This document shows positions 2,073 through 36,606 of a stretch of 64,000 nt of DNA, one piece after another. Below the pieces are notes generated by a model that ran no database searches, was not told the origin of the DNA, and saw nothing but the letters and a program-made list of their open reading frames with translations. The stretch covers positions 37,472 to 101,471 of the forward strand of contig NZ_DAMCID010000016.1 of assembly GCF_032099025.1 (NCBI RefSeq). Reading direction: 5' to 3'. Each line of letters opens with the position of its first letter. Position 1 is the stretch's first letter. The position numbers and the translations under genes were made by a program. This DNA is from Stenotrophomonas sp. Its GTDB lineage: Bacteria; Pseudomonadota; Gammaproteobacteria; Xanthomonadales; Xanthomonadaceae.

Positions 2073-2648
2073 ATGAGTGTTACCCATGCACACGACATGC
2101 CCACTTCGCCGCAGCACCAGCGCGACGTTCTCGACGATCCGGCCCGCCGCCGCACTTCTCCGTGGTTGTGGATGGCGCTGATCGTGGCGATGTTCGCCGC
2201 CGCGCTGGTCTGGCTGCGCTACGCGAATCCGACCGAGGGCGTCACGGCGCCGGTGGGCGAGCGCATGCTGCCCGCCACGGAAACGCCGGTTGCCACGACG
2301 CCCGCGCCGGTGAACCGCGAGGCCGCGCCGGCCACCACGCAGCGCCGCGCGGCGCCTGCGGTACGTAACCGCGATGCGCGGCCGCTGACCAGCAATGCGA
2401 AGCCGGTGTACCCGCGCACGGCGCTGCGTAGCGGTGTGGAAGGCAGTGTGATTGCCAGCCTCAACGTGGATACGCGCGGCCAGGTGACGGACGCCAACAT
2501 CGTGCAGCGCAGCGGTTCGCGCGACCGCGATCTGGATCGTGCGGTGCTGAGCACGGTGCGTGACTGGAAGTTCGAGCCGGCCCTGCAGAACGGTCGTGCC
2601 GTTGCCAGTGTGGTGCGTGTGCCGGTGGATTTCCGTACCGAGCGGTAA
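2073..2648 (+). CDS. Second TonB family energy transducer
   Basis: TM helix (LWMALIVAMFAAALVWL), Pro/Ala linker, YPRTALRSGVEGSV...SGSRDRDLDRAV...WKFEPA. Confidence 0.88.
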   Translation: MSVTHAHDMPTSPQHQRDVLDDPARRRTSPWLWMALIVAMFAAALVWLRYANPTEGVTAPVGERMLPATETPVATTPAPVNREAAPATTQRRAAPAVRNRDARPLTSNAKPVYPRTALRSGVEGSVIASLNVDTRGQVTDANIVQRSGSRDRDLDRAVLSTVRDWKFEPALQNGRAVASVVRVPVDFRTER

Positions 2649-2679
2649 GGGTGTAGACGAATAACGGCGGGGGAGCCGG

Positions 2680-2713
2680 GGGGCCGATCTGTTTGATCGG
2701 CCCCTTTTTTTTT
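2680..2713 (+). terminator. Rho-independent terminator
   Basis: GGGGCCGATC-TGTTT-GATCGGCCCC followed by 9 T. Confidence 0.9.
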
Positions 2714-2756
2714 GTCTTTTTGGGTTTGCGCGAAGAAGAGCAGACCAGAGCAGAGC

Positions 2757-2810
2757 AGCCGACTAACAGTCGGCTCTACCCGGTCGGCTCTACCCGGTCG
2801 GTTTTACCGG
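2757..2810 (-). repeat. REP (GTAGAGCCGACTGTTAGTCGGCT) with a 14-bp tandem tail
   Basis: 2757-2779 is identical to the REP at 36418-36440. The unit gtcggctctacccg occurs twice (first copy overlapping the REP) and then degenerates. Confidence 0.85.
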
Positions 2811-2847
2811 TTGGATTACGCAGCCACGCATGGCGTGGCTCTACCGG

Positions 2848-4155
2848 TCAGGCGAGGTTGAAGCCGGTGCCGCGGGCCAGGCCGTCGAAGTTGGGGAACG
2901 AGGTGGCTACGTTGACGATGTCGTTGACGCGCACTTCGCCCGTGCTGAGCTGGCCGGCAATGGCGAAGGCCATGGCGATGCGGTGGTCACCGTGGCTTTC
3001 AATCGTGCCGCTGCCCAGTGGGTGGCCGCCGTGGATGGTGGCGCCATCTTCGGTTTCGTCCACCTGCACGCCCAGGCTGCGCAGGCCGGTGGCCATTGCC
3101 GCCAGACGGTCCGATTCCTTGACCCGCAGTTCGGCCGCACCACGCACGACGGTGTTGCCCTGCGCCGCAGCGGCGGCCACGAATAGCGCCGGGAACTCGT
3201 CGATCATGTCCGGCACCAGTGCCTCGGGGATCTCCGCACCGTGCAGCGGCGCATGACGCACCACCAGGTCGGCCACCGCTTCCCCACCCTGCTCGGCATG
3301 GTTTTCCTCGACGATGTCCGCGCCCATCAGGCGCAGTGCCGCCAGCAGGCCGGTGCGGCGCGGGTTGAGGCCCACCTGGCGCAGGCGCAGTTCCGACCCC
3401 GGAATGATGCTGGCGGCCACCAGGAAGAACGCAGCCGACGAGAAATCGGCCGGCACCGCGATGTTGGTGGCGCGCAGGCGCTGGCCGCCCTGCAGGCGCG
3501 CCTGGCCGGGGGAGAATTCAATCTCCACGCCGAAGGCGCGCAGCATGCGCTCGCTGTAATCGCGGGTCGGGTGCGGTTCGGTCACGGCGGTGACGCCGGC
3601 GGCGTACAGGCCCGCGAGCAGCACGGCGGATTTGACCTGGGCGCTCGCCACCGGCGAGGCGAAGTCGATGCCGTGCAGCGCCTGGCCGCCGTGCACGCGC
3701 AGCGGTGGGGTGCCGTCGGAGTCGGTGTCGATCTTCGCGCCCATCTGCGCCAGCGGGCCGGTCACGCGGCGCATCGGGCGCCGCGACAGCGATTCGTCAC
3801 CCACCATCACCGAGTCGAACGGCTGCGCGGCCAGCAGGCCGGCGAGCAGGCGCATGCCGGTGCCGGCATTGCCGCAGTCCAGCGGCGCGCTGGGCGCCTG
3901 CAGGCCATCCACGCCAACGCCGTGCACGATGCGCTGCGACGGCGACGGGGTCTCGATGCGCACGCCCAGCTGCGAAAAGATGGCGGCGGTGGCGCGGGTG
4001 TCCTCGCCTTCCAGGAAGCCGTCGATGTGCGACACGCCGTCGGCCAGGGCGGCGAACATCACCGCGCGGTGCGACACGGACTTGTCGCCGGGAATGGTCA
4101 GGCTGCCCTGAAGGGGCTGGCCCTTGCGGGCGATCCAGTAAGCGGAAGCGGTCAT
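2848..4155 (-). CDS. aroA: 3-phosphoshikimate 1-carboxyvinyltransferase (EPSP synthase)
   Basis: PGDKSVSHR, DCGNAGTGMRL, RVKESDR and DHRIAMAF motifs. Confidence 0.97.
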   Translation of the reverse strand: MTASAYWIARKGQPLQGSLTIPGDKSVSHRAVMFAALADGVSHIDGFLEGEDTRATAAIFSQLGVRIETPSPSQRIVHGVGVDGLQAPSAPLDCGNAGTGMRLLAGLLAAQPFDSVMVGDESLSRRPMRRVTGPLAQMGAKIDTDSDGTPPLRVHGGQALHGIDFASPVASAQVKSAVLLAGLYAAGVTAVTEPHPTRDYSERMLRAFGVEIEFSPGQARLQGGQRLRATNIAVPADFSSAAFFLVAASIIPGSELRLRQVGLNPRRTGLLAALRLMGADIVEENHAEQGGEAVADLVVRHAPLHGAEIPEALVPDMIDEFPALFVAAAAAQGNTVVRGAAELRVKESDRLAAMATGLRSLGVQVDETEDGATIHGGHPLGSGTIESHGDHRIAMAFAIAGQLSTGEVRVNDIVNVATSFPNFDGLARGTGFNLA

Positions 4156-29283: not shown

Positions 29284-31740
29284 CTACCTAGCGTTTTTGA
29301 CGTACGTATCGAACCAGTTGAGCATTTCCGACACCAGCTGTTCGTTCGATTCCAGCGCCGTATACCAGTGCGGTTCGTTGGGCAGCATCACCAGGCGGGT
29401 GATGCCGCCGTTGCCACGGATGGCCTGGTAGAGCTTGCGCGACTGGAACGGCTCGGTGCCCGGATTCGCGTCATCCTCGCCGTGCACCAGCAGCAGCGGC
29501 AGCTTGATCTTGTCGGCGTAGAAGAACGGCGACGCCTTCAGGTACACGTCCTGCGCCTGCCATACCGAGCGGCGCTCGTTCTGGAAACCGAACGGGGTGA
29601 ACGTCTTGTTGTACGAGCCGCTGGTGGCCACGCCGGCCTTGAAGAGGTTGGTGTGTGCGATCAGGTTGGCGGTCATCAACCCGCCGTGGCTGTGGCCGGT
29701 AACGCCGATGCGGTTGCGGTCGACCACGCCCAGGTCCACCGCCTTGTCCACGGCGGCCTTGGCATCGGCTTCCAGCTGTTCCAGGTAGGTGTCGTAGGCG
29801 GTCTTGGGGTCGCCGACGATCGGGAACGAGGCGTTGTCGATGATCGCGTAGCCGGCCAGCAGCATCAGCCGGTACGGCGCCAGGCGGGTGAAGGTCTGCT
29901 GCGAGCCGGACACCTGCCCCGCCTGCGCGGCGTTGGCGAAGTCGGCCGGGTAGGCGTACAGGATCGCCGGCACGCGTTGGCCTTCCTGGTAGCCCGGCGG
30001 CGTGTACAGGGTGAACGACAGGTCCACGCCATCGGCGCGTTTGTACGTCACCAGCCGCTTCTTGATCTGGCGCACTTCCGGGGTCGGGTCGGTCAGCCGG
30101 GTCAGTGCGCTGGCGGTGGAGGCGTACTGCGCTTCGCCGTCCTTCGCTGCGGCCTCGCGCTCGCCCTGCTGGCGCACGAATGCGTTCGGCGGGTCCATCA
30201 CCGACTGGTGCCAGGTCAGGTAGCGGCCCGGGGTGGCGGTCAGCCCCAGCACCTGCTCATAGGCATCGGTGCTGCTGCGGAACAGCCGCTCGGTCTTGAG
30301 CGAGCCCAGGTCGAGGCGATCCAGGAACGGGCGGTCGCCCTGCGGCGAACTGCCCTGCCCGCGCAGGAACACGAACGCGCCGTCCTGGCGTACGACCGAT
30401 GCGCCATTGGGGAGGCGCTTGAAGACGAGGTTGCCCGGATCGGCGTACTGCTCGTCACTGGAGAGGTCCCACAGCAGGCGGCCTTCCTGCTTAGGGTTGT
30501 CCACGTCGACGATGCGGGTCTGGCGCCAATGGCGGTTCTCGTCGTTCTCGAACAGGAACGACACCGCCGGGTCCGCGCTCCACGCGATGCCCTCGAAACG
30601 CTGCGCGGTGCGCGCGATCTCCTGCGGCTTGCCAGTGAACGGCGCCTTCAATGCCAGCACCCGGTCGCGATGCGGCACCGTCACCTTCCAGTCGCCCTTG
30701 TCCAGCGCTTCGGCATACACCAGCGTGGCCGGATCGGTGGAGCGCCAGTCGAACTCGCGCGGGCCTTCCGGCACGCCGTGCACCGGCACGCGGTCGGCCA
30801 GTGGCAGGCTGGCAACCGGCGTGCTGCGGCCGGTGCCCAGGTCGACCACCGCTACGTCATTGGCGAAACGCTGGTACGTCACCGCATGCGAGAACGGCGC
30901 CTTGAGGGTTTCGGTGAGCACATGCACGCCATCGGGGGCCGCATTGATGTCGTTGTACAGCGCGGGTGCACCGACGTTGCGCACGCTGCCGGCGGCGGTG
31001 TCGACCACCGCCAGCTGCGAGGCACCGTAGTATGCGAACAGCGCTTCGTCGTGCACGCTGGTCAGCGTGTCGCGGGCCTCATAGGTGCTGCTCTCGCCGC
31101 TGCTGCCCAGCGACTCCTGCACGTCCGGGCCGCCCGGCCCATTGCCGCTGGACGGCGCCGGGCCCTGGTTGGCCGGCACGGTCTTCACCAGAAGTTGCTG
31201 GCCGCCGCCGAGCCATTGCACGGTGTAGCCGAAGATCGGGTTGAGCTGTACGTTCGGAATCTGCTTGACCTGACCGGTCTGCGCGTCGCCCACCCACAGC
31301 TGCACCGAGGTCTCCACCGCGTTCTGGAACGCGAAGCGGCTGCCATCGGCCGACCACTGCGCGGCGCTCGCGCAGCCCTGCGGCAACGCTACCTTGGTGT
31401 TGCGGGCGGTGCCGACCTCGACGAGGGTGAAATCGGCCACGCAGGCCGGGATGCCGTAGCCGCCCTGCGTGTCGTGGCGGCTGCGGTTCTTCGGCTCCAG
31501 GCGCACGCCAGCCAGCTTCAGATAAGGCTGGGCAACGCGCTCGATCGACGGGTAGGTCTGCAGCGTGGTCAGCAGCAGCCGCTGCCCGCTCGGGTCCAGG
31601 CTGGGCTGCGGCGGCGGCGGTGCCTTGAGCACCTTGAGCAGCGCCTCCGGCGGCTTGGCGTAGTCGGCGAAGGCCGGTGTGGCGACAGTGAGCGTTGCCA
31701 CGGCAATGGCCGAAGCCAGGCAGGTACGACGGATGAGCAT
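29284..31740 (-). CDS. S9 family (prolyl oligopeptidase-like) peptidase, exported
   Basis: Signal peptide; GHSHGG nucleophile, EDDANPG, EPHWY; ends VKNAR*. Confidence 0.92.
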   Translation of the reverse strand: MLIRRTCLASAIAVATLTVATPAFADYAKPPEALLKVLKAPPPPQPSLDPSGQRLLLTTLQTYPSIERVAQPYLKLAGVRLEPKNRSRHDTQGGYGIPACVADFTLVEVGTARNTKVALPQGCASAAQWSADGSRFAFQNAVETSVQLWVGDAQTGQVKQIPNVQLNPIFGYTVQWLGGGQQLLVKTVPANQGPAPSSGNGPGGPDVQESLGSSGESSTYEARDTLTSVHDEALFAYYGASQLAVVDTAAGSVRNVGAPALYNDINAAPDGVHVLTETLKAPFSHAVTYQRFANDVAVVDLGTGRSTPVASLPLADRVPVHGVPEGPREFDWRSTDPATLVYAEALDKGDWKVTVPHRDRVLALKAPFTGKPQEIARTAQRFEGIAWSADPAVSFLFENDENRHWRQTRIVDVDNPKQEGRLLWDLSSDEQYADPGNLVFKRLPNGASVVRQDGAFVFLRGQGSSPQGDRPFLDRLDLGSLKTERLFRSSTDAYEQVLGLTATPGRYLTWHQSVMDPPNAFVRQQGEREAAAKDGEAQYASTASALTRLTDPTPEVRQIKKRLVTYKRADGVDLSFTLYTPPGYQEGQRVPAILYAYPADFANAAQAGQVSGSQQTFTRLAPYRLMLLAGYAIIDNASFPIVGDPKTAYDTYLEQLEADAKAAVDKAVDLGVVDRNRIGVTGHSHGGLMTANLIAHTNLFKAGVATSGSYNKTFTPFGFQNERRSVWQAQDVYLKASPFFYADKIKLPLLLVHGEDDANPGTEPFQSRKLYQAIRGNGGITRLVMLPNEPHWYTALESNEQLVSEMLNWFDTYVKNAR

Positions 31741-31878
31741 CCAGATCCCCTTGAAAGTATGGGTTCCCGGCGGCGCACGTGTCGCCGGCATCCCGTGGAA
31801 TCTAGCACCGGGGCGCCGTGCTGGAATGGGCCGAAAGCACTAGGTGCGTTGCCGGCCTTGCGCTGCGGATGCCGTCAG

Positions 31879-32301
31879 TCAGGCGCCCTGGTATACGTCG
31901 TGGACAAGCGAGATGCCCAGCGCTGCCATGCGACCGAGCAACCGGGGCGGCAGCTCAACGGCGAAGTTCCGGTTGCTGTGCGAACTGAACCATATGCGGA
32001 TCGTCCCCTGTTCGGCGATCTTCAACAGGAACGCTGCGTGTGGCTCAAGCCAGCCCAATGTGTCCTCCAGCGCGTCCTCGAAACGCTCTTCGGTGGACTC
32101 CCGCCAACGCTCGGAGAAGGGGTTGCAGGTCCAGTACGATTCCGGCCACGTCCCCTGCAGCAACGTGCCCTTCGGCGTGCGGCGCGGCTCTCCTGCCTTC
32201 CAGAACGTGTCTGCAGACTTGCCAAGTGCCTGGCTGATCAGCTCAGGATCGAAGGACGGATGGGTGATCCTGATGTCCAGGATGTACGTGTAGGTCTGCA
32301 A
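31879..32301 (-). CDS. DUF4279-like protein
   Basis: DPELISQALG...WKAGEPR pattern; TTG start; family recalled, not searched. Confidence 0.6.
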   Translation of the reverse strand: MQTYTYILDIRITHPSFDPELISQALGKSADTFWKAGEPRRTPKGTLLQGTWPESYWTCNPFSERWRESTEERFEDALEDTLGWLEPHAAFLLKIAEQGTIRIWFSSHSNRNFAVELPPRLLGRMAALGISLVHDVYQGA

Positions 32302-32312
32302 GAAACCCGTCC

Positions 32313-32630
32313 TCAGTTCGACAGCCGGCGTTCGCCGCTGTCCAGGATCGCGCCTTCGATGCTGTCCTTGGGTGCGCCGACACGTTCCATGAAGTCGCGC
32401 AGCATCACGTCCCGGCAGTGCTCCAGTGACTGGCCATCGCGTTCGGAGAACATGCGCGCGGCGTGCTCGAACAGATCGGACAACAGCTCACCAAAGTCGG
32501 CAGCGCCGCCACTGAGATCGGAATTGAGCGTCACGTGCAGTTCTTCGTGAGCCGCCCACAGGCGCATGATCTCGAACGCCTCCGGGTCACTCAACACGCC
32601 GTCGGGGATGCGCAGTTCATCGGTATACAT
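32313..32630 (-). CDS. DUF5076-like protein
   Basis: ELRIP...AFEIMRLWAA...LHV...GELLSDL..HAA pattern; family recalled, not searched. Confidence 0.6.
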   Translation of the reverse strand: MYTDELRIPDGVLSDPEAFEIMRLWAAHEELHVTLNSDLSGGAADFGELLSDLFEHAARMFSERDGQSLEHCRDVMLRDFMERVGAPKDSIEGAILDSGERRLSN

Positions 32631-32726
32631 GGGTTTCTTCCGTGATGGTGTTTGGGTCGTGTCGCTGCATGCGTTGGCGGCCCACCCCCTGCGGACCGCT
32701 ACGGCATCACGGTAAGACGAGCGCAC

Positions 32727-34061
32727 TTACTCCGTCAATGGATCCCCGTGCGCAGCGGCCATGCGCGCCGCTGCGGCATGCGGACAGACCGGCGCGGCAT
32801 CACGCTGGGGTACCGGTCGCGGTGCAGGAGTGCCCACCTGACGCGGCGCCACCACCCCCTTGAAGTCGATGGGAATGGCAAACCCCTCCAGTTGCATCCA
32901 GGGCGCCGGATCGGCCTGTACCTGGATATCGAAATCCCGCGTGACCAGCGCACAGAACAGGATCAGCTGGGCGTGCCCGACCGCGCTGCCGATGCATGCC
33001 CGGGAGGAGAATCCAAATGGGACGTAGGCGCCCTTGTTGGGCTGACGGCGCGACGGGAGCCACCGGTCAGGATCAAATACGTCGGGCGCATCCCAGAACT
33101 CCGGCGAATGGTGCTGGTAATACGAGGACAGCTCGTAGGCCGCGCCCTTCTTGATGGTCACGCCCTCGGCCTCGATGTCATGCCAGGCCGGGCGACGCAG
33201 TGCGAACAGGCCGGGCCACACGCGGATGGTTTCCTTGACGAACCGCGAGGTGCACGGCAGATCCTTCATGGGCAGCGAATACAGCGTTTCCAGGTCAAGC
33301 GCCGTGGTCTCGGCCTGGATGCGCTCGCGCCACTCGGGGTAGCGATGCATCGCATACAGCAGGCTCGCCGCGGTGATGCCCGGCAGGCCGGACATTCCGG
33401 CCAGCACCGTCGAAACAAGATAGGCCACGCGGTCGACGCCAATCCGCCCCGCCAGGGGCAGCAGCGACTGCAGGAAATCGTCATGCGTGCGGCCTTTATC
33501 GCGCGACCGCTGTTTGATGTGGCGGGTGACCGTGCGCGCCGCCTTGCGTGACAGGTGAAAATTCAGAATGCGGCGCAGCAGCGAGAAATCCTGCTGCACG
33601 ATGCCGCTGTAGCGGGTCTTCTGCTCGCCCACCAGCGCATCGATATCGCGCTGGTTCATGCCACCGATCAAAAGGGGAAGCAGCGGCTCGGAAATGGTCC
33701 ACCAGCTGAGTTCGCTCAGGTCCTGCACCGTGCCGCAGCGCTGGGACAGGTATGCATGCATGCGCGTATACAGCGTGCGCATGTGCTCCGGTGCCGCAAG
33801 CCGGCCGCCCTGCTCGCTCAGCAATGCCCGGACTTCCCGCCATGCAACGGGTGTGCGCGATCCACGCAGGCCGAGAAAATCGATGAGTGAATCAGGCACC
33901 GTGTGCTTGTCGGTGTTGGCCTTGTCGACCTTGACCGCCAGCGTTGGATCGAAAATGCCGACCACGTCGTTCTGGAATGCAAGCACCGGCCCTTCCCGGC
34001 GAACCCGTTCAAGCAGGTCGTCGATTGAAACGACTTCCGCGTCTGTGCCCTGATCCGCCAT
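32727..34061 (-). CDS. Cytochrome P450, putative RiPP aromatic cross-linking enzyme
   Basis: ExxR (KETIR), PDRW, heme motif PFGFSSRACIG; I-helix AGMSGLPGITAA lacks the acid-alcohol pair; GGGAGG RBS. Confidence 0.93.
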   Translation of the reverse strand: MADQGTDAEVVSIDDLLERVRREGPVLAFQNDVVGIFDPTLAVKVDKANTDKHTVPDSLIDFLGLRGSRTPVAWREVRALLSEQGGRLAAPEHMRTLYTRMHAYLSQRCGTVQDLSELSWWTISEPLLPLLIGGMNQRDIDALVGEQKTRYSGIVQQDFSLLRRILNFHLSRKAARTVTRHIKQRSRDKGRTHDDFLQSLLPLAGRIGVDRVAYLVSTVLAGMSGLPGITAASLLYAMHRYPEWRERIQAETTALDLETLYSLPMKDLPCTSRFVKETIRVWPGLFALRRPAWHDIEAEGVTIKKGAAYELSSYYQHHSPEFWDAPDVFDPDRWLPSRRQPNKGAYVPFGFSSRACIGSAVGHAQLILFCALVTRDFDIQVQADPAPWMQLEGFAIPIDFKGVVAPRQVGTPAPRPVPQRDAAPVCPHAAAARMAAAHGDPLTE

Positions 34062-34080
34062 CTCACCGCCTCCCTGAAAT

Positions 34081-34109
34081 GCCAGGGGTGGCCATTGACC
34101 ACCCCTGGC
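34081..34109 (-). promoter_or_regulatory. Stem-loop between precursor peptide gene and P450
   Basis: Perfect 11-bp stem GCCAGGGGTGG/CCACCCCTGGC with a 7-nt loop and no U tail. Confidence 0.65.
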
Positions 34110-34140
34110 GTGCTCATGAAAACACGCGGAGAATCTGCGC

Positions 34141-34242
34141 TTAGAAAATGATCCAGTAAATGTACTTCGAACGGATGCTCTGGGTCGGACTGACCGAACG
34201 GAGGTTCAGGGAAACCTGCAAGGCGCGAACAAGATTAGCCAT
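34141..34242 (-). CDS. Putative RiPP precursor peptide, MANLVRALQVSLNLRSVSPTQSIRSKYIYWIIF (33 aa)
   Basis: AGGAG 7 nt before the ATG; aromatic-rich C terminus; co-oriented 79 nt upstream of the P450. Confidence 0.75.
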   Translation of the reverse strand: MANLVRALQVSLNLRSVSPTQSIRSKYIYWIIF

Positions 34243-34566
34243 GATATGACTCCTGGTTGTTTCGTTGTTGTCCCGATATCGAATACCAGATGCTGGATGT
34301 CTGGCGCCTTGTTTTAGCACGCATGATCCGTCGAAATGGAATGTCGTTGAATCTGTCGTTATCCGGATAGTTTTCACACTGGTGCGCTCTTATTGGACGA
34401 GAGGCGCATCACAGTTTCGCCTGACGCGGGCGGCGGCCCCGCGCGGCCTGCGCAGGACACTCCGCGCGCCTCCCGCGCCTGCCTGGCCTCGGCGACACCC
34501 ACCGCCCGGGCGCGGGGATGCATGGGCCACGCTAAGATGTCCAGGTCTTTTCATCACTGGATCCCC

Positions 34567-35343
34567 GTGCGTACCGTCCACGCGCTCCGCTACATCACCC
34601 CGCTCCGCGAGGGGGGCTCCCTGCCTGCCGTGGTCGAGACTGACGACGATGGGATGGTGGTCCTCAAGTTCCGGGGCGCCGGCCAGGGCCCCAAAGCGCT
34701 GATCGCCGAGCTGATTGCCGGCGAGTTGGCCCGCACCCTCGGCCTGCCTATTCCCGACATCGTGTTCGTGGAGCTGGACCGCGAGTTCGCCCGCACCGAG
34801 CCGGACCCGGAAATCCAGGACCTGATCCGCGCCAGTGAAGGCCTGAACCTGGGCAGCGATTACCTGCCCGGCGCGATCAATTACGATCCGGCGGCCATGC
34901 CGGTGGACGCTGACCTGGCCTCGCGCATCGTCTGGTTCGATGCCTTCACCAGCAACGTGGACCGCACCGCGCGCAACCCGAACCTGATGGTCTGGCACCG
35001 CAAGCTGTATCTGATCGACCATGGCGCGGCGATGTATTTCCACCACGATTGGGCCACCGCCGGCGATGTATGCGAGAAGCCGTTCCTGCTGATCCGCGAC
35101 CAGGTGCTGCTGCCGTTCGCCACGAAGATCGCCGAGGTCGATGCCGAGCTGGCCGCGCGGCTGCCGGATGCGGAGATCGAGCGCATCGTCGGGCTGGTGC
35201 CTGACAGCTGGCTGGTCGACGAGCCCGCCTTCGACACCCCGGCAGCGTACCGCCAGGCGTACATCGATTATCTGACGTGCCGCCTGCGGTCGCGCGCCGC
35301 TTTCGTCCAGGAGGCCGTCCGTGCCCACGCTGCATACGTATGA
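34567..35343 (+). CDS. HipA-like kinase
   Basis: LREGGSLP, VLKFRGAG, NVDRTARNPN catalytic loop, YLIDHG; GTG start inferred. Confidence 0.82.
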   Translation: MRTVHALRYITPLREGGSLPAVVETDDDGMVVLKFRGAGQGPKALIAELIAGELARTLGLPIPDIVFVELDREFARTEPDPEIQDLIRASEGLNLGSDYLPGAINYDPAAMPVDADLASRIVWFDAFTSNVDRTARNPNLMVWHRKLYLIDHGAAMYFHHDWATAGDVCEKPFLLIRDQVLLPFATKIAEVDAELAARLPDAEIERIVGLVPDSWLVDEPAFDTPAAYRQAYIDYLTCRLRSRAAFVQEAVRAHAAYV

Positions 35344-35710
35344 CTATGCGGTGATCCGCGTGGTACCGCGGGTGGAACGCGAAGAGTTCATCAACGTCGG
35401 GGTGATCGTCTCGTGCCCCGGCGCACGCCACCTGCAGGCCGCGATCGAGATCGACGCCGTGCGCATGCACGCCTTTGCGCCCTCGCTGGACGTGGAGGCG
35501 CTGCAACCGTGGCTGGATGCGATCGTGGCGATCTGCCGGGGCGACGCCAACGCGGGACCGATCGCCCAGCTGCCGGCGCGTGCGCGCTTCCATTTCCTGA
35601 CCGCGAAGCGCAGCTCGATCGTGCAGATGTCGAGCACGCATGTGGGGCGCACTGCGGACCCGCAGGGGGTGGTGGAGCATCTGATGCGGAAGATGGTGCG
35701 GGTGGTTTGA
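35321..35710 (+). CDS. DUF3037 domain protein
   Basis: YDYAVIRVVPRVEREEFINVGVI signature; overlaps the kinase stop. Confidence 0.85.
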   Translation: MPTLHTYDYAVIRVVPRVEREEFINVGVIVSCPGARHLQAAIEIDAVRMHAFAPSLDVEALQPWLDAIVAICRGDANAGPIAQLPARARFHFLTAKRSSIVQMSSTHVGRTADPQGVVEHLMRKMVRVV

Positions 35711-35749
35711 CGGTGGGTCATGAAAGGCTGCACCGACAGCCGGTTGGGT

Positions 35750-36202
35750 CTACCCAACCGGCCAGCGGCACCATGCATGCGGGTACTCACCCAGGCATTC
35801 CGCCAGCTTTGCGCGCACCGGATTGGCGAGGATGTACATCGCCTGTTCGCGCAGGGATTCCTCCGTTCGAATGGCATGGTCGTAATAGCCCGGTTGCCAC
35901 ACTCTGCCGCTGCGCCCCTGGCAGCGGTTGAGCAGGAAGCTGGTGCGCGCCTTGAAGCGCTGGACGCAGTAACCCAGCGTGTGGCCGCGCAGCTGTGCGA
36001 GCCAGTGGATGTGATCGGGCATGACGACCCACGCCAGTGAGCTGGTGACGCCTTCCGCATCCATCGCGCGGAGGATGCGCATGGGAATCTCCGCGCATCG
36101 GGCGTCGTCGAAGTAGCGATGACGCTGCTCGCAGACCATGGTGAGTGCGTAGACGTTGCCGATCATGGACCGGCGCCCGATGTGGAGTTGTGGGCTGCTC
36201 AT
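35750..36202 (-). mobile_element. REP-associated tyrosine transposase (RAYT, Y1 HUH)
   Basis: WVVMPDHIHW (HUH), WQPGYYDHAIR, YILANP (catalytic Tyr); adjacent REP doublet. Confidence 0.92.
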
Positions 36203-36301
36203 GGGGCCACGATGCCGTGCGTGGCGAAGTCGCGGTATCGGCGTTCTGTGATTGGTTTTGTCGGGGCAGCCGCCTGTTGAGTGTCGGGTCTATGGCAGGG
36301 C

Positions 36302-36365
36302 GGCTGGGCGGCTGGGCGGCTGGGCGGCTGGCAGGCTGCCCGGCTGGCCGACTGGCCGACTGGGT
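36302..36365. repeat. 8-bp tandem repeat (GGCTGGGC, 8 units, degenerating)
   Basis: ggctgggc x3, then ggctggca, ggctgccc, ggctggcc, gactggcc, gactgggt. Confidence 0.8.
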
Positions 36366-36440
36366 AGAGCCGACTGTTAGTCGGCTGCTCCCCGCCGGCG
36401 ACGCTCCAATCAACGGCAGCCGACTAACAGTCGGCTCTAC
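36364..36440. repeat. Inverted REP doublet (REPIN/BIME-like) of the RAYT
   Basis: GTAGAGCCGACTGTTAGTCGGCT at 36364-36386 and its reverse complement at 36418-36440. Confidence 0.92.
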
Positions 36441-36466
36441 CCAGTCGGTGTTGTCCGGTTTTGCCC

Positions 36467-36606
36467 TGTCGGTTTTGCCCGGCCGGTGTAGCCCGGCCGG
36501 TGTAGCCCGGCCGGTGTAGCCCGGTCGGTTTCGCCCGATCGGTGTTGCCCGGCCGATTTTGCCCGGCTGGTCATGCCCGGTCCGTTTTGCCCGGGCCGTT
36601 TTACTC
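36467..36606. repeat. 14-bp degenerate tandem array (10 units)
   Basis: ggccggtgtagccc x3 exact, plus variants such as ggtcggtttcgccc and ggccgattttgccc in strict 14-nt register. Confidence 0.85.

Follow-up and report, generated by a model that had tools for sequence, protein, structure and literature searches.

A short aromatic peptide gene and a divergent cytochrome P450 as a likely two-gene cassette for a cross-linked peptide in Stenotrophomonas

The stretch of Stenotrophomonas sp. DNA analysed here (contig NZ_DAMCID010000016.1 of assembly GCF_032099025.1, positions 37,472 to 101,471; 64,000 nucleotides, referred to below as the window) contains a gene for an atypical cytochrome P450 (P450) that is preceded by a short open reading frame (sORF) with an aromatic C-terminus. 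This arrangement raises the question of whether the two genes together encode a ribosomally made peptide that carries post-translational modifications (RiPP) and, if so, what the enzyme does to the peptide. Our results make it probable, with good confidence, that the two genes constitute a stand-alone RiPP cassette of the P450-cross-linked (cyptide) type. The elements at its center are the following:

34250-34254, minus strand: ribosome-binding site (RBS) AGGAG, 7 nt ahead of the precursor ATG
34141-34242, minus strand: precursor gene (the sORF), 33 amino acids, read from the sequence as MANLVRALQVSLNLRSVSPTQSIRSKYIYWIIF, then a stop
32727-34061, minus strand: cytochrome P450 of a small divergent family, 444 amino acids

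The precursor stop is followed after 79 nt by the ATG of the P450 (34061), with both genes on the minus strand. A previous sequence-only reading of the window had described this 33-codon frame, its AGGAG site 7 nt upstream, and its position 79 nt before a co-oriented P450, and each of these details was confirmed. It had also pointed out that the program-made list of open reading frames shows the 33-amino-acid frame solely as the tail of a 78-amino-acid frame starting at GTG (34141-34377), which is indeed the case. The longer frame was rejected as the coding unit, as 18 of the 19 other loci of clade A (the Stenotrophomonas clade of the window; the 19 include one genome sampled twice) have an in-frame stop 17-37 codons 5' of the ATG, and because the extension is not conserved, the 33-amino-acid reading is the correct one. 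Clade-A orthologues have an AGGAG-like site at the same position (mostly AGGAG or AAGGAG, GGGAG once), and the start, RBS, and stop position of the sORF are kept in every homologous locus. Within clade A, the ratio of nonsynonymous to synonymous changes (pN/pS) is 0.18-0.34 in the sORF's own frame, compared with 1.06-2.85 for the two alternative frames. Changes in codons 6-15 are almost solely third-position and synonymous, with L8M as the sole exception, both core Tyr codons show synonymous variation, no change is seen at Trp30 or Phe33, and the stop codon varies between TAA, TAG, and TGA at a constant position. The precursor peptide is under purifying selection, and the sORF is more than a chance frame, given its conserved start, RBS, and stop position and its coding-type evolution. 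The genome contains no second copy of the peptide, making the sORF the sole peptide of its type.

The association of the peptide with the P450 extends well beyond this genome. At all of the ~48 distinct P450 homologue loci examined, ranging from 100% to 29% identity, a same-strand sORF of 28-35 amino acids with an RBS lies 46-92 nt upstream. The loci comprise 19 from clade A and 13 from clade B of Stenotrophomonas, one metagenome contig, Allosphingosinicella, Thermoanaerobaculia, four Streptomyces, Amycolatopsis, one Lysobacteraceae metagenome-assembled genome, and six additional Xanthomonadaceae loci. Precursor and P450 are co-conserved over at least four phyla, and some clusters have 2-3 tandem precursor copies. 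This survey is the check on upstream reading frames that the sequence-only reading had proposed, and a conserved leader and aromatic core were always found. Its suggestion that a short precursor and one P450 make up a minimal RiPP cluster is also upheld, by the co-conservation, the purifying selection, and relatives that are proven enzyme substrates. The general marks of a cyptide cluster are present at the window, namely an adjoining, co-oriented precursor and P450, their co-conservation, and an aromatic C-terminus; against a criterion of at least two Trp, Tyr, or His residues, the C-terminal ~10 residues of the precursor hold Y27, Y29, and W30, plus F33. The window-family P450 occurs in 25 of the 147 species genomes of the genus Stenotrophomonas and was found in none of 24 genomes drawn from the order's other families. 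A search of genome contigs with the P450 alignment was dominated by generic P450 motifs, true relatives accounting for 6 of the 80 loci. The two main S. maltophilia peptide variants are each found on at least 1000 contigs, and where public annotations include the peptides, as some do, it is as "hypothetical protein" only.

The window precursor consists of a leader with a helix motif at residues 6-15 and the core Y27-I-Y29-W30-I-I-F33, and both parts have counterparts throughout the family. The family-wide leader is the helix-forming x-[RK]-x-x-x-[RK]-A-x-x-x-[SA]-[LF]-[NG]-[ILV]-[RH], or RAxxxSLN[IL]R in short, while the C-terminus has a fixed register in which W/Y occupy -7 and -4, the next two residues vary, and the final one is hydrophobic (F/I). 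The -7 and -4 positions, Tyr27 and Trp30 in the window peptide, are aromatic in every family member. Tyr29 (-5), which gives the core its YxYW appearance, is conserved in clade A only; YxYW is strictly kept in the 19 clade-A loci (YIYW, or YRYW in the sister clade) and is absent in clade B, where the core is WxxWxxW, and in the more distant relatives, where it is WxxY. The precursors of the family are as follows:

Clade A: MANLVRALQVSLNLRS[VH]SPTQSIRSKYIYWIIF and MTRLIRALQVSLNLRSDNSTQCIRSKYRYWNIF
Clade B (paralogous, ~42% P450 identity): MKRFARALRV[ST]LNIHP[TN]EKSSVW[TN][VT]W[QP][IL]W[VI]EF
Metagenome contig: ...SSLWKVWPYWVEF
Allosphingosinicella: ...CFRTWPQYIDF and ...CEMWKWYIEF
Thermoanaerobaculia: MAKIARAVLTALAVRRRDREYWWYFYHHI
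Streptomyces, including S. rimosus: MRALYRQVKSALNIRRQYEYFWYLYHHI
Amycolatopsis xylanica: ...RHYRWYYYHHI
Other Xanthomonadaceae genera: MKKVICAMRAAFGVRGASGCGITSWRWVIYHNI, frequently in 2-3 tandem copies

From the window alone, the core had been read both as Y-x-x-W and as a cittilin-like YxYW; the former (-7/-4) is the one favored across the family, while the latter is limited to one Stenotrophomonas clade. The proposal that QSIR or SIRSK serves as a KSLK-like junction between leader and core is unsupported, as the conserved leader motif, RALQVSLNLR, sits further upstream.

The same register is found in a system with a characterized enzyme. The gpe cluster ("Gpertide"), reported in a Li laboratory preprint, has two precursors, ending in WRWVMYHHM and WFWMLYHHM, and its P450 GpeC (PDB 9ULW) joins Trp-C7 and Tyr-C3 within WxxY, a Trp(-7)-Tyr(-4) bond; GpeC is leader-independent and accepts engineered Tyr-Tyr and Tyr-Trp pairs, and Gpe-like precursors are experimentally proven substrates of a clustered P450 (bioRxiv 10.1101/2024.10.06.616194). 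Judged by their sequences, the GpeA cores and the W-x-x-Y-H-[HN]-[IM] precursors found here plainly belong to one family. Gpe precursors have the same build as that of the window (~27-35 amino acids, aromatics at -7 and -4, a 3-residue tail), although the window has YIYWIIF as its core in place of W-x-x-Y-H-H-[IM].

Gpe-like clusters are ordered as a ~380-amino-acid GpeC-like P450, the precursor or precursors, and a ~410-amino-acid window-family P450, and such two-P450 clusters are seen in Xanthomonadaceae, Streptomyces, Amycolatopsis, and Thermoanaerobaculia. The ~380-amino-acid P450 matches 9ULW at 7.4e-75, whereas the best PDB match of the ~410-amino-acid P450 is at 6e-14 and is not 9ULW. 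The window P450 aligns with this second P450 over its full length at 29-34% identity, the two falling in one 100/100 clade, and it is thus the orthologue of the second P450 in Gpe-like clusters, an enzyme that goes unmentioned in the preprint text (bioRxiv 10.1101/2024.10.06.616194). The window P450 shows no detectable relationship to 9ULW closer than that of the superfamily, and 9ULW is not among its best 60 PDB matches. Two-P450 Gpe-like clusters of Streptomyces and Thermoanaerobaculia (L018 and L016) also carry a class I S-adenosylmethionine-dependent methyltransferase beside the P450s, which suggests further tailoring beyond the single GpeC cross-link.

No GpeC-type gene was found in Stenotrophomonas, and the window genome has exactly one P450, that of the cassette, which is not GpeC-like. 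The Stenotrophomonas, metagenome, and Allosphingosinicella enzymes form a derived clade with 100/100 support that is nested within lineages having two P450s (in a tree with a midpoint root only). This pattern fits a scenario in which Stenotrophomonas lost the GpeC type and the remaining P450 became the sole modifier. As GpeC ignores the leader, yet the leader is conserved wherever a window-family P450 occurs, we infer that it is the window family that reads the leader.

The P450 itself appears, from sequence comparison, to be a separate small lineage in a clade of its own. It matches Pfam PF00067 (2e-31) over residues 184-395 only, in its C-terminal half. The E277-x-x-R280 motif and the haem ligand Cys356 (FGFSSRACIG) do not vary across an alignment of 60 family sequences, and the I-helix, AGMSGLPG, has no acid-alcohol pair, the family consensus TAISGxPG being likewise without one and Pro227 being invariant; the intact ExxR and haem-Cys motifs and the atypical I-helix reported from the window alone are therefore family-wide traits. 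Among 1.84 billion representative proteins (clusters at 50% identity), 49 clusters match the P450 at E <= 1e-30, mostly over the full length, and beyond these there are mainly generic matches to the P450 C-terminal half. NCBIfam has no specific model for either the P450 or the peptide, the best scores being far under the cut-offs. The AlphaFold model is confident, with a mean predicted local distance difference test (pLDDT) score of 86.9, and among solved structures those closest to it belong to the E class (CYP3A4, P450DA, CYP184A1, CYP170A1, and CYP17A1), at a template modeling score of ~0.65 and 15-22% identity; the PDB sequence search agrees with the structure search on these nearest relatives. 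For comparison, reference P450s from atropopeptide clusters and from a third type with LGYIYTY precursors were recovered from sister genera. The window P450 scores 176-640 bits within its own family, 37-43 against atropopeptide-type P450s (with alignments that span only ~85-146 residues), 44-57 against the GpeC type, and 64-88 against the GYIYTY type. In a maximum-likelihood tree, the window family is a clade at 100/100 on a long branch, and the atropopeptide-type and GpeC-type P450s group together elsewhere; the enzyme falls with neither of these types, which corrects the likeness drawn in the sequence-only reading. Residues 409-444 of the P450 (window 32727-32834) form a 36-residue Pro/Ala-rich tail with a pLDDT mostly below 50, which is shared by an 86%-identical orthologue and is missing from most homologues (~408 amino acids).

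In the mechanism that we propose for the cassette, the 33-amino-acid peptide would be translated from its own RBS, its amphipathic N-terminal leader (xRxxRALQVSLNLR) would dock on the P450, and the C-terminal core YIYWIIF would thread to the haem. The enzyme would then oxidatively couple aromatic side chains, Tyr27 and Trp30 being the favored pair, and most likely the cross-link in the product, because their positions are those that are aromatic throughout the family; a second link through Tyr29 is possible. An intergenic hairpin would let the precursor mRNA exceed the enzyme mRNA, and leader removal, export, and the ferredoxin/reductase partners would be provided by unlinked genes. Several observations weigh against this proposal. 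A natural in-frame read-through fusion of peptide, linker, and P450 exists in S. maltophilia R-24 (L019, with TGA as Gly), and its fold gave a pLDDT of ~30 for the peptide and no support for docking. A promoter scan upstream of the sORF found no sigma-70-like site, and no protease, exporter, or redox partner is linked to the cassette. In addition, the -7/-4 bond in two-P450 clusters is made by the other enzyme, and the window family may have a different role there, such as a second link or a hydroxylation.

The last of these points bears on the idea that the P450 introduces no cross-link into the peptide but alters it in another way, for instance by hydroxylation of Trp or Tyr, and that it is an accessory tailoring enzyme carried over from two-P450 clusters. 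The GpeC-type P450 makes the macrocycle in Gpe-like clusters, which leaves an accessory role possible for the window family (bioRxiv 10.1101/2024.10.06.616194), and some cyptide P450s, such as SroB and AscB, are known to hydroxylate Trp (PMC11659900, PMC13185096). However, the enzyme is the sole P450 in Stenotrophomonas, yet the -7/-4 aromatic spacing is strict, and a cross-link needs such spacing while a single hydroxylation does not. We therefore consider an enzyme of this kind quite improbable at the window.

A different kind of ring is suggested by the YxYW core, on which the P450 might make a cittilin/syrinamide-type bicycle, with a Tyr1-Tyr3 C-C bond and a Tyr3-Trp4 ether on Y27-I-Y29-W30. 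YxYW cores are known substrates for such bicyclization: in the syrinamide and shandoamide systems from the Ge group (SyrA/SyrB and SanA/SanB), SyrB acts on YVYW and SanB on YTYW to form exactly these two bonds (PMC11659900, PMC13185096), and both systems share with the window the Y-x-Y-W core and the minimal cluster of one precursor and one P450 (PMC11659900). Cittilin (CitA/CitB, core YIYY, from Myxococcus) likewise shares the Y-I-Y-aromatic core and the minimal pairing of precursor and P450, but the fourth residue is Trp here, and the family pattern is -7/-4 rather than 1-3/3-4. The strict retention of YxYW in clade A, with synonymous changes in both of its Tyr codons, also speaks for the bicycle, whereas the lack of conservation of Tyr29 in clade B and the WxxY relatives speaks against it. 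The known examples come from actinomycete biosynthetic gene clusters, with P450s in cluster C05 of a sequence similarity network that are ~30% identical to CitB and KstB (PMC13185096), and SanB, SyrB, and CitB belong to a PSI-BLAST-linked group with the atropopeptide enzymes at ~30% identity (PMC13185096), while the similarity of the window P450 to the atropopeptide type is confined to the short alignments given above. This comparison of SanB, SyrB, and CitB with the window P450 is an indirect one, through their reported ~30% identity to the atropopeptide enzyme KstB (PMC13185096) and the local, superfamily-level similarity of the window P450 to that type. The window core also differs from those of the syrinamides and shandoamide in its conserved 3-residue tail, and its P450 lies outside the lineage that holds the atropopeptide-type enzymes. 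On balance, a bicycle of this kind is rather unlikely, and the -7/-4 cross-link remains the reading that we prefer. With regard to the new Tyr-Tyr and Tyr-Trp cross-links suggested in the sequence-only reading, YxYW is not new chemistry per se, given syrinamide and shandoamide (PMC11659900); indeed, YxYW, WxxY, and WxxW cores have all been described already (PMC11659900, PMC12797325, PMC13185096).

Comparison with other P450-modified peptides also separates the window system from each of them. The atropopeptides, such as tryptorubin, share a helical leader, a motif containing S-L, a C-terminal aromatic core, a single P450, and occurrence in Xanthomonadaceae (AtropoFinder, PMC11450843), and atropopeptide clusters have been predicted in Xanthomonas and related genera, although none of the products had been isolated from Pseudomonadota by 2025 (PMC11450843, PMC12352619). 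However, the six motifs that define atropopeptides (KSLK, RSLK, ESLK, KSRK, KPLK, and PSLK) are absent from MANLVRALQVSLNLRSVSPTQSIRSKYIYWIIF and from every family member, the SLN motif of the window peptide is ~11 residues from the core, and the P450s belong to different clades (37-43 bits), with that of the window outside the atropopeptide clade. True atropopeptide clusters are present in other Xanthomonadaceae (L155 at 2121-3339, L156, and L157, in genomes G180, G243, and G297), with the precursors MKLLFSIKHLLSSKKPLKSYAWYIWY and MKMLFSLKNLLASKKSLKSYSWYIWY followed by a ~389-amino-acid P450; MKLLFSIKHLLSSKKPLKSYAWYIWY has the tryptorubin core AWYIWY and a KPLK motif, and the atropopeptide examples from sister genera carry KPLK or KSLK. 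A third type of sORF and P450 pair in Xanthomonadaceae (L129 at 1297-2850, L130 at 1265-2871, and L131, on the minus strand) has 26-27-amino-acid precursors ending in ...LGYIYTY, for example MKRLFDSLSRWVQSLGGNRLGYIYTY, which directly precede a ~470-amino-acid P450 with a full-length Pfam match, whose 64-88 bits to the window family reflect superfamily-level similarity only. Strecintide and the bitryptides (ScnA, W-R-I-W; ScnB) share the four-residue aromatic-x-x-aromatic ring motif, in particular with the W-x-x-W of clade-B Stenotrophomonas, but ScnB falls in known actinobacterial cyptide synthase clusters (PMC12797325) and has no demonstrated homology to the window P450 family. Biarylitides differ in having a five-residue MxYxH/MxHxH precursor, in contrast to the 33 amino acids with a conserved leader found here.

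Several further features define the cassette and its expression:

34081-34109, minus strand: hairpin (13-bp GC-rich stem, 3-nt loop) that separates the precursor stop from the P450 RBS
34243-34525, minus strand: AT-richer upstream region within the cassette, with the insertion boundary at ~34525
32631-34525, minus strand: the two-gene cassette as an insertion/deletion, 1,895 bp compared with 89 nt in a related genome (G001)

The 96-nt intergenic stretch containing the hairpin folds at -46.5 kcal/mol (z = -4.96). In clade-A loci, all 12 consensus pairs are kept except for one alignment gap, with compensatory changes in 2 pairs, and clade B has a different hairpin in the same place. A scan of 31500-36600 against Rfam gave no match inside the cassette. 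Intergenic hairpins set the ratio of precursor to enzyme in many RiPP operons, and the hairpin here is likely a partial or leaky terminator or an mRNA stabilizer that would favor the precursor transcript over that of the enzyme. The layout could also be that of an amino-acid attenuator, with a Tyr/Trp-rich short frame, a stable conserved hairpin ~30 nt on, and then the P450, such that the sORF would be a regulatory upstream frame or leader peptide that attenuates, together with the hairpin, a P450 acting on a small aromatic molecule. However, purifying selection acts on the whole peptide, its non-aromatic leader included, and lineages from Streptomyces through Stenotrophomonas have the leader motif in common; tandem paralogous copies occur, no alternative antiterminator pairing appears in the fold, and homologous peptides are proven enzyme substrates (bioRxiv 10.1101/2024.10.06.616194). 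A regulatory role in place of a precursor role is thus highly implausible, and we continue to treat the sORF as a RiPP precursor.

The limits of the cassette are clear from G001, a related genome without the P450, in which the DUF5076 gene is followed by 89 nt and then the HipA_2 kinase gene. The 1,895-bp insert holds the P450 gene, the hairpin, and the sORF with its upstream region, and nothing else, and the cassette is a discrete, mobile two-gene unit. The GC content of the sORF and the stretch upstream of it is ~0.49-0.56, compared with ~0.65 in the surroundings, and the region at 34243-34525 (GC ~0.49-0.63) presumably holds the promoter.

An S9 peptidase gene at 29284-31791, ~1 kb away, was considered as a candidate leader peptidase of the cluster and rejected, as it is a core gene that is present and syntenic with or without the cassette. 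In G005, it directly abuts HipA_2, and S. maltophilia-type genomes have the peptidase locus without the cassette, their cassettes lying >1 Mb away. The sequence-only reading, which saw no dedicated peptidase or exporter adjacent to the pair, thus holds. Between this gene and the cassette, at 31879-32630 on the minus strand, are DUF4279 and DUF5076 genes, each variable among close relatives, with DUF5076 present in G001 and replaced in G154; this variability makes the interval from the peptidase to HipA_2 a hot spot for small insertions. Because genomes without the cassette keep the locus and the S. maltophilia cassettes lie elsewhere, the S9 peptidase, DUF4279, and DUF5076 are placed outside the system. 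On the other side, at 34393-35710 on the plus strand, the genes for a HipA_2-family kinase and a DUF3037 protein share a 23-nt overlap; whether or not a genome has the cassette, this pair is conserved and syntenic. Further on, a ~90-nt palindrome at 36357-36447 matches Rfam "mir-449" on both strands below the gathering score and recurs tens of times across a related genome; it looks like a repeat of the repetitive extragenic palindromic or miniature inverted-repeat transposable element type, not a microRNA.

To our knowledge, actinomycetes and a small number of related P450 clusters account for nearly all cyptide enzymes that have been characterized. As a peptide class, cyptides are known and have been mined intensively, while this P450 lineage, the precursor signature, and the one-enzyme Stenotrophomonas form are undescribed in accessible sources. 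Full-text literature searches for the peptide strings and for Stenotrophomonas together with P450 RiPPs returned no relevant paper, although Streptomyces members may sit in subscription-only or unpublished similarity networks. P450-cross-linked peptides supply a rapidly expanding range of rigid macrocycles and biocatalysts, and the window lineage represents the partner of GpeC in the published system, an unstudied enzyme whose function can be read cleanly in the one-enzyme forms of Stenotrophomonas, as these have a single P450 per genome. We advance tentatively the possibility that the family is an independently recruited, leader-dependent macrocyclase lineage that took over ring formation in Stenotrophomonas after the loss of GpeC and that would make new Tyr-Trp cyclophanes in clade A and Trp-Trp cyclophanes in clade B.

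Within the S. maltophilia complex, in which the peptides are common despite their annotation as hypothetical proteins, two paralogous cassettes, with a clade-A2 core of YRYWNIF and a clade-B core of W..W..WVEF, lie on either side of a DJ-1/PfpI gene and a gene of the LuxR type whose product has an autoinducer-binding domain (L120, in G034, S. maltophilia R-24, NZ_CP183981.1, 10110-15130; also L122). The bracketed gene pair fits the published hchA-smoR operon (Smlt1840-1839; PMC4432800), which encodes an LuxR solo responsive to acyl-homoserine lactones, and genomes with clade B only keep this DJ-1/PfpI-LuxR neighborhood. If this association holds true, the cassettes could give rise to secondary metabolites that an opportunistic pathogen makes in connection with quorum sensing.

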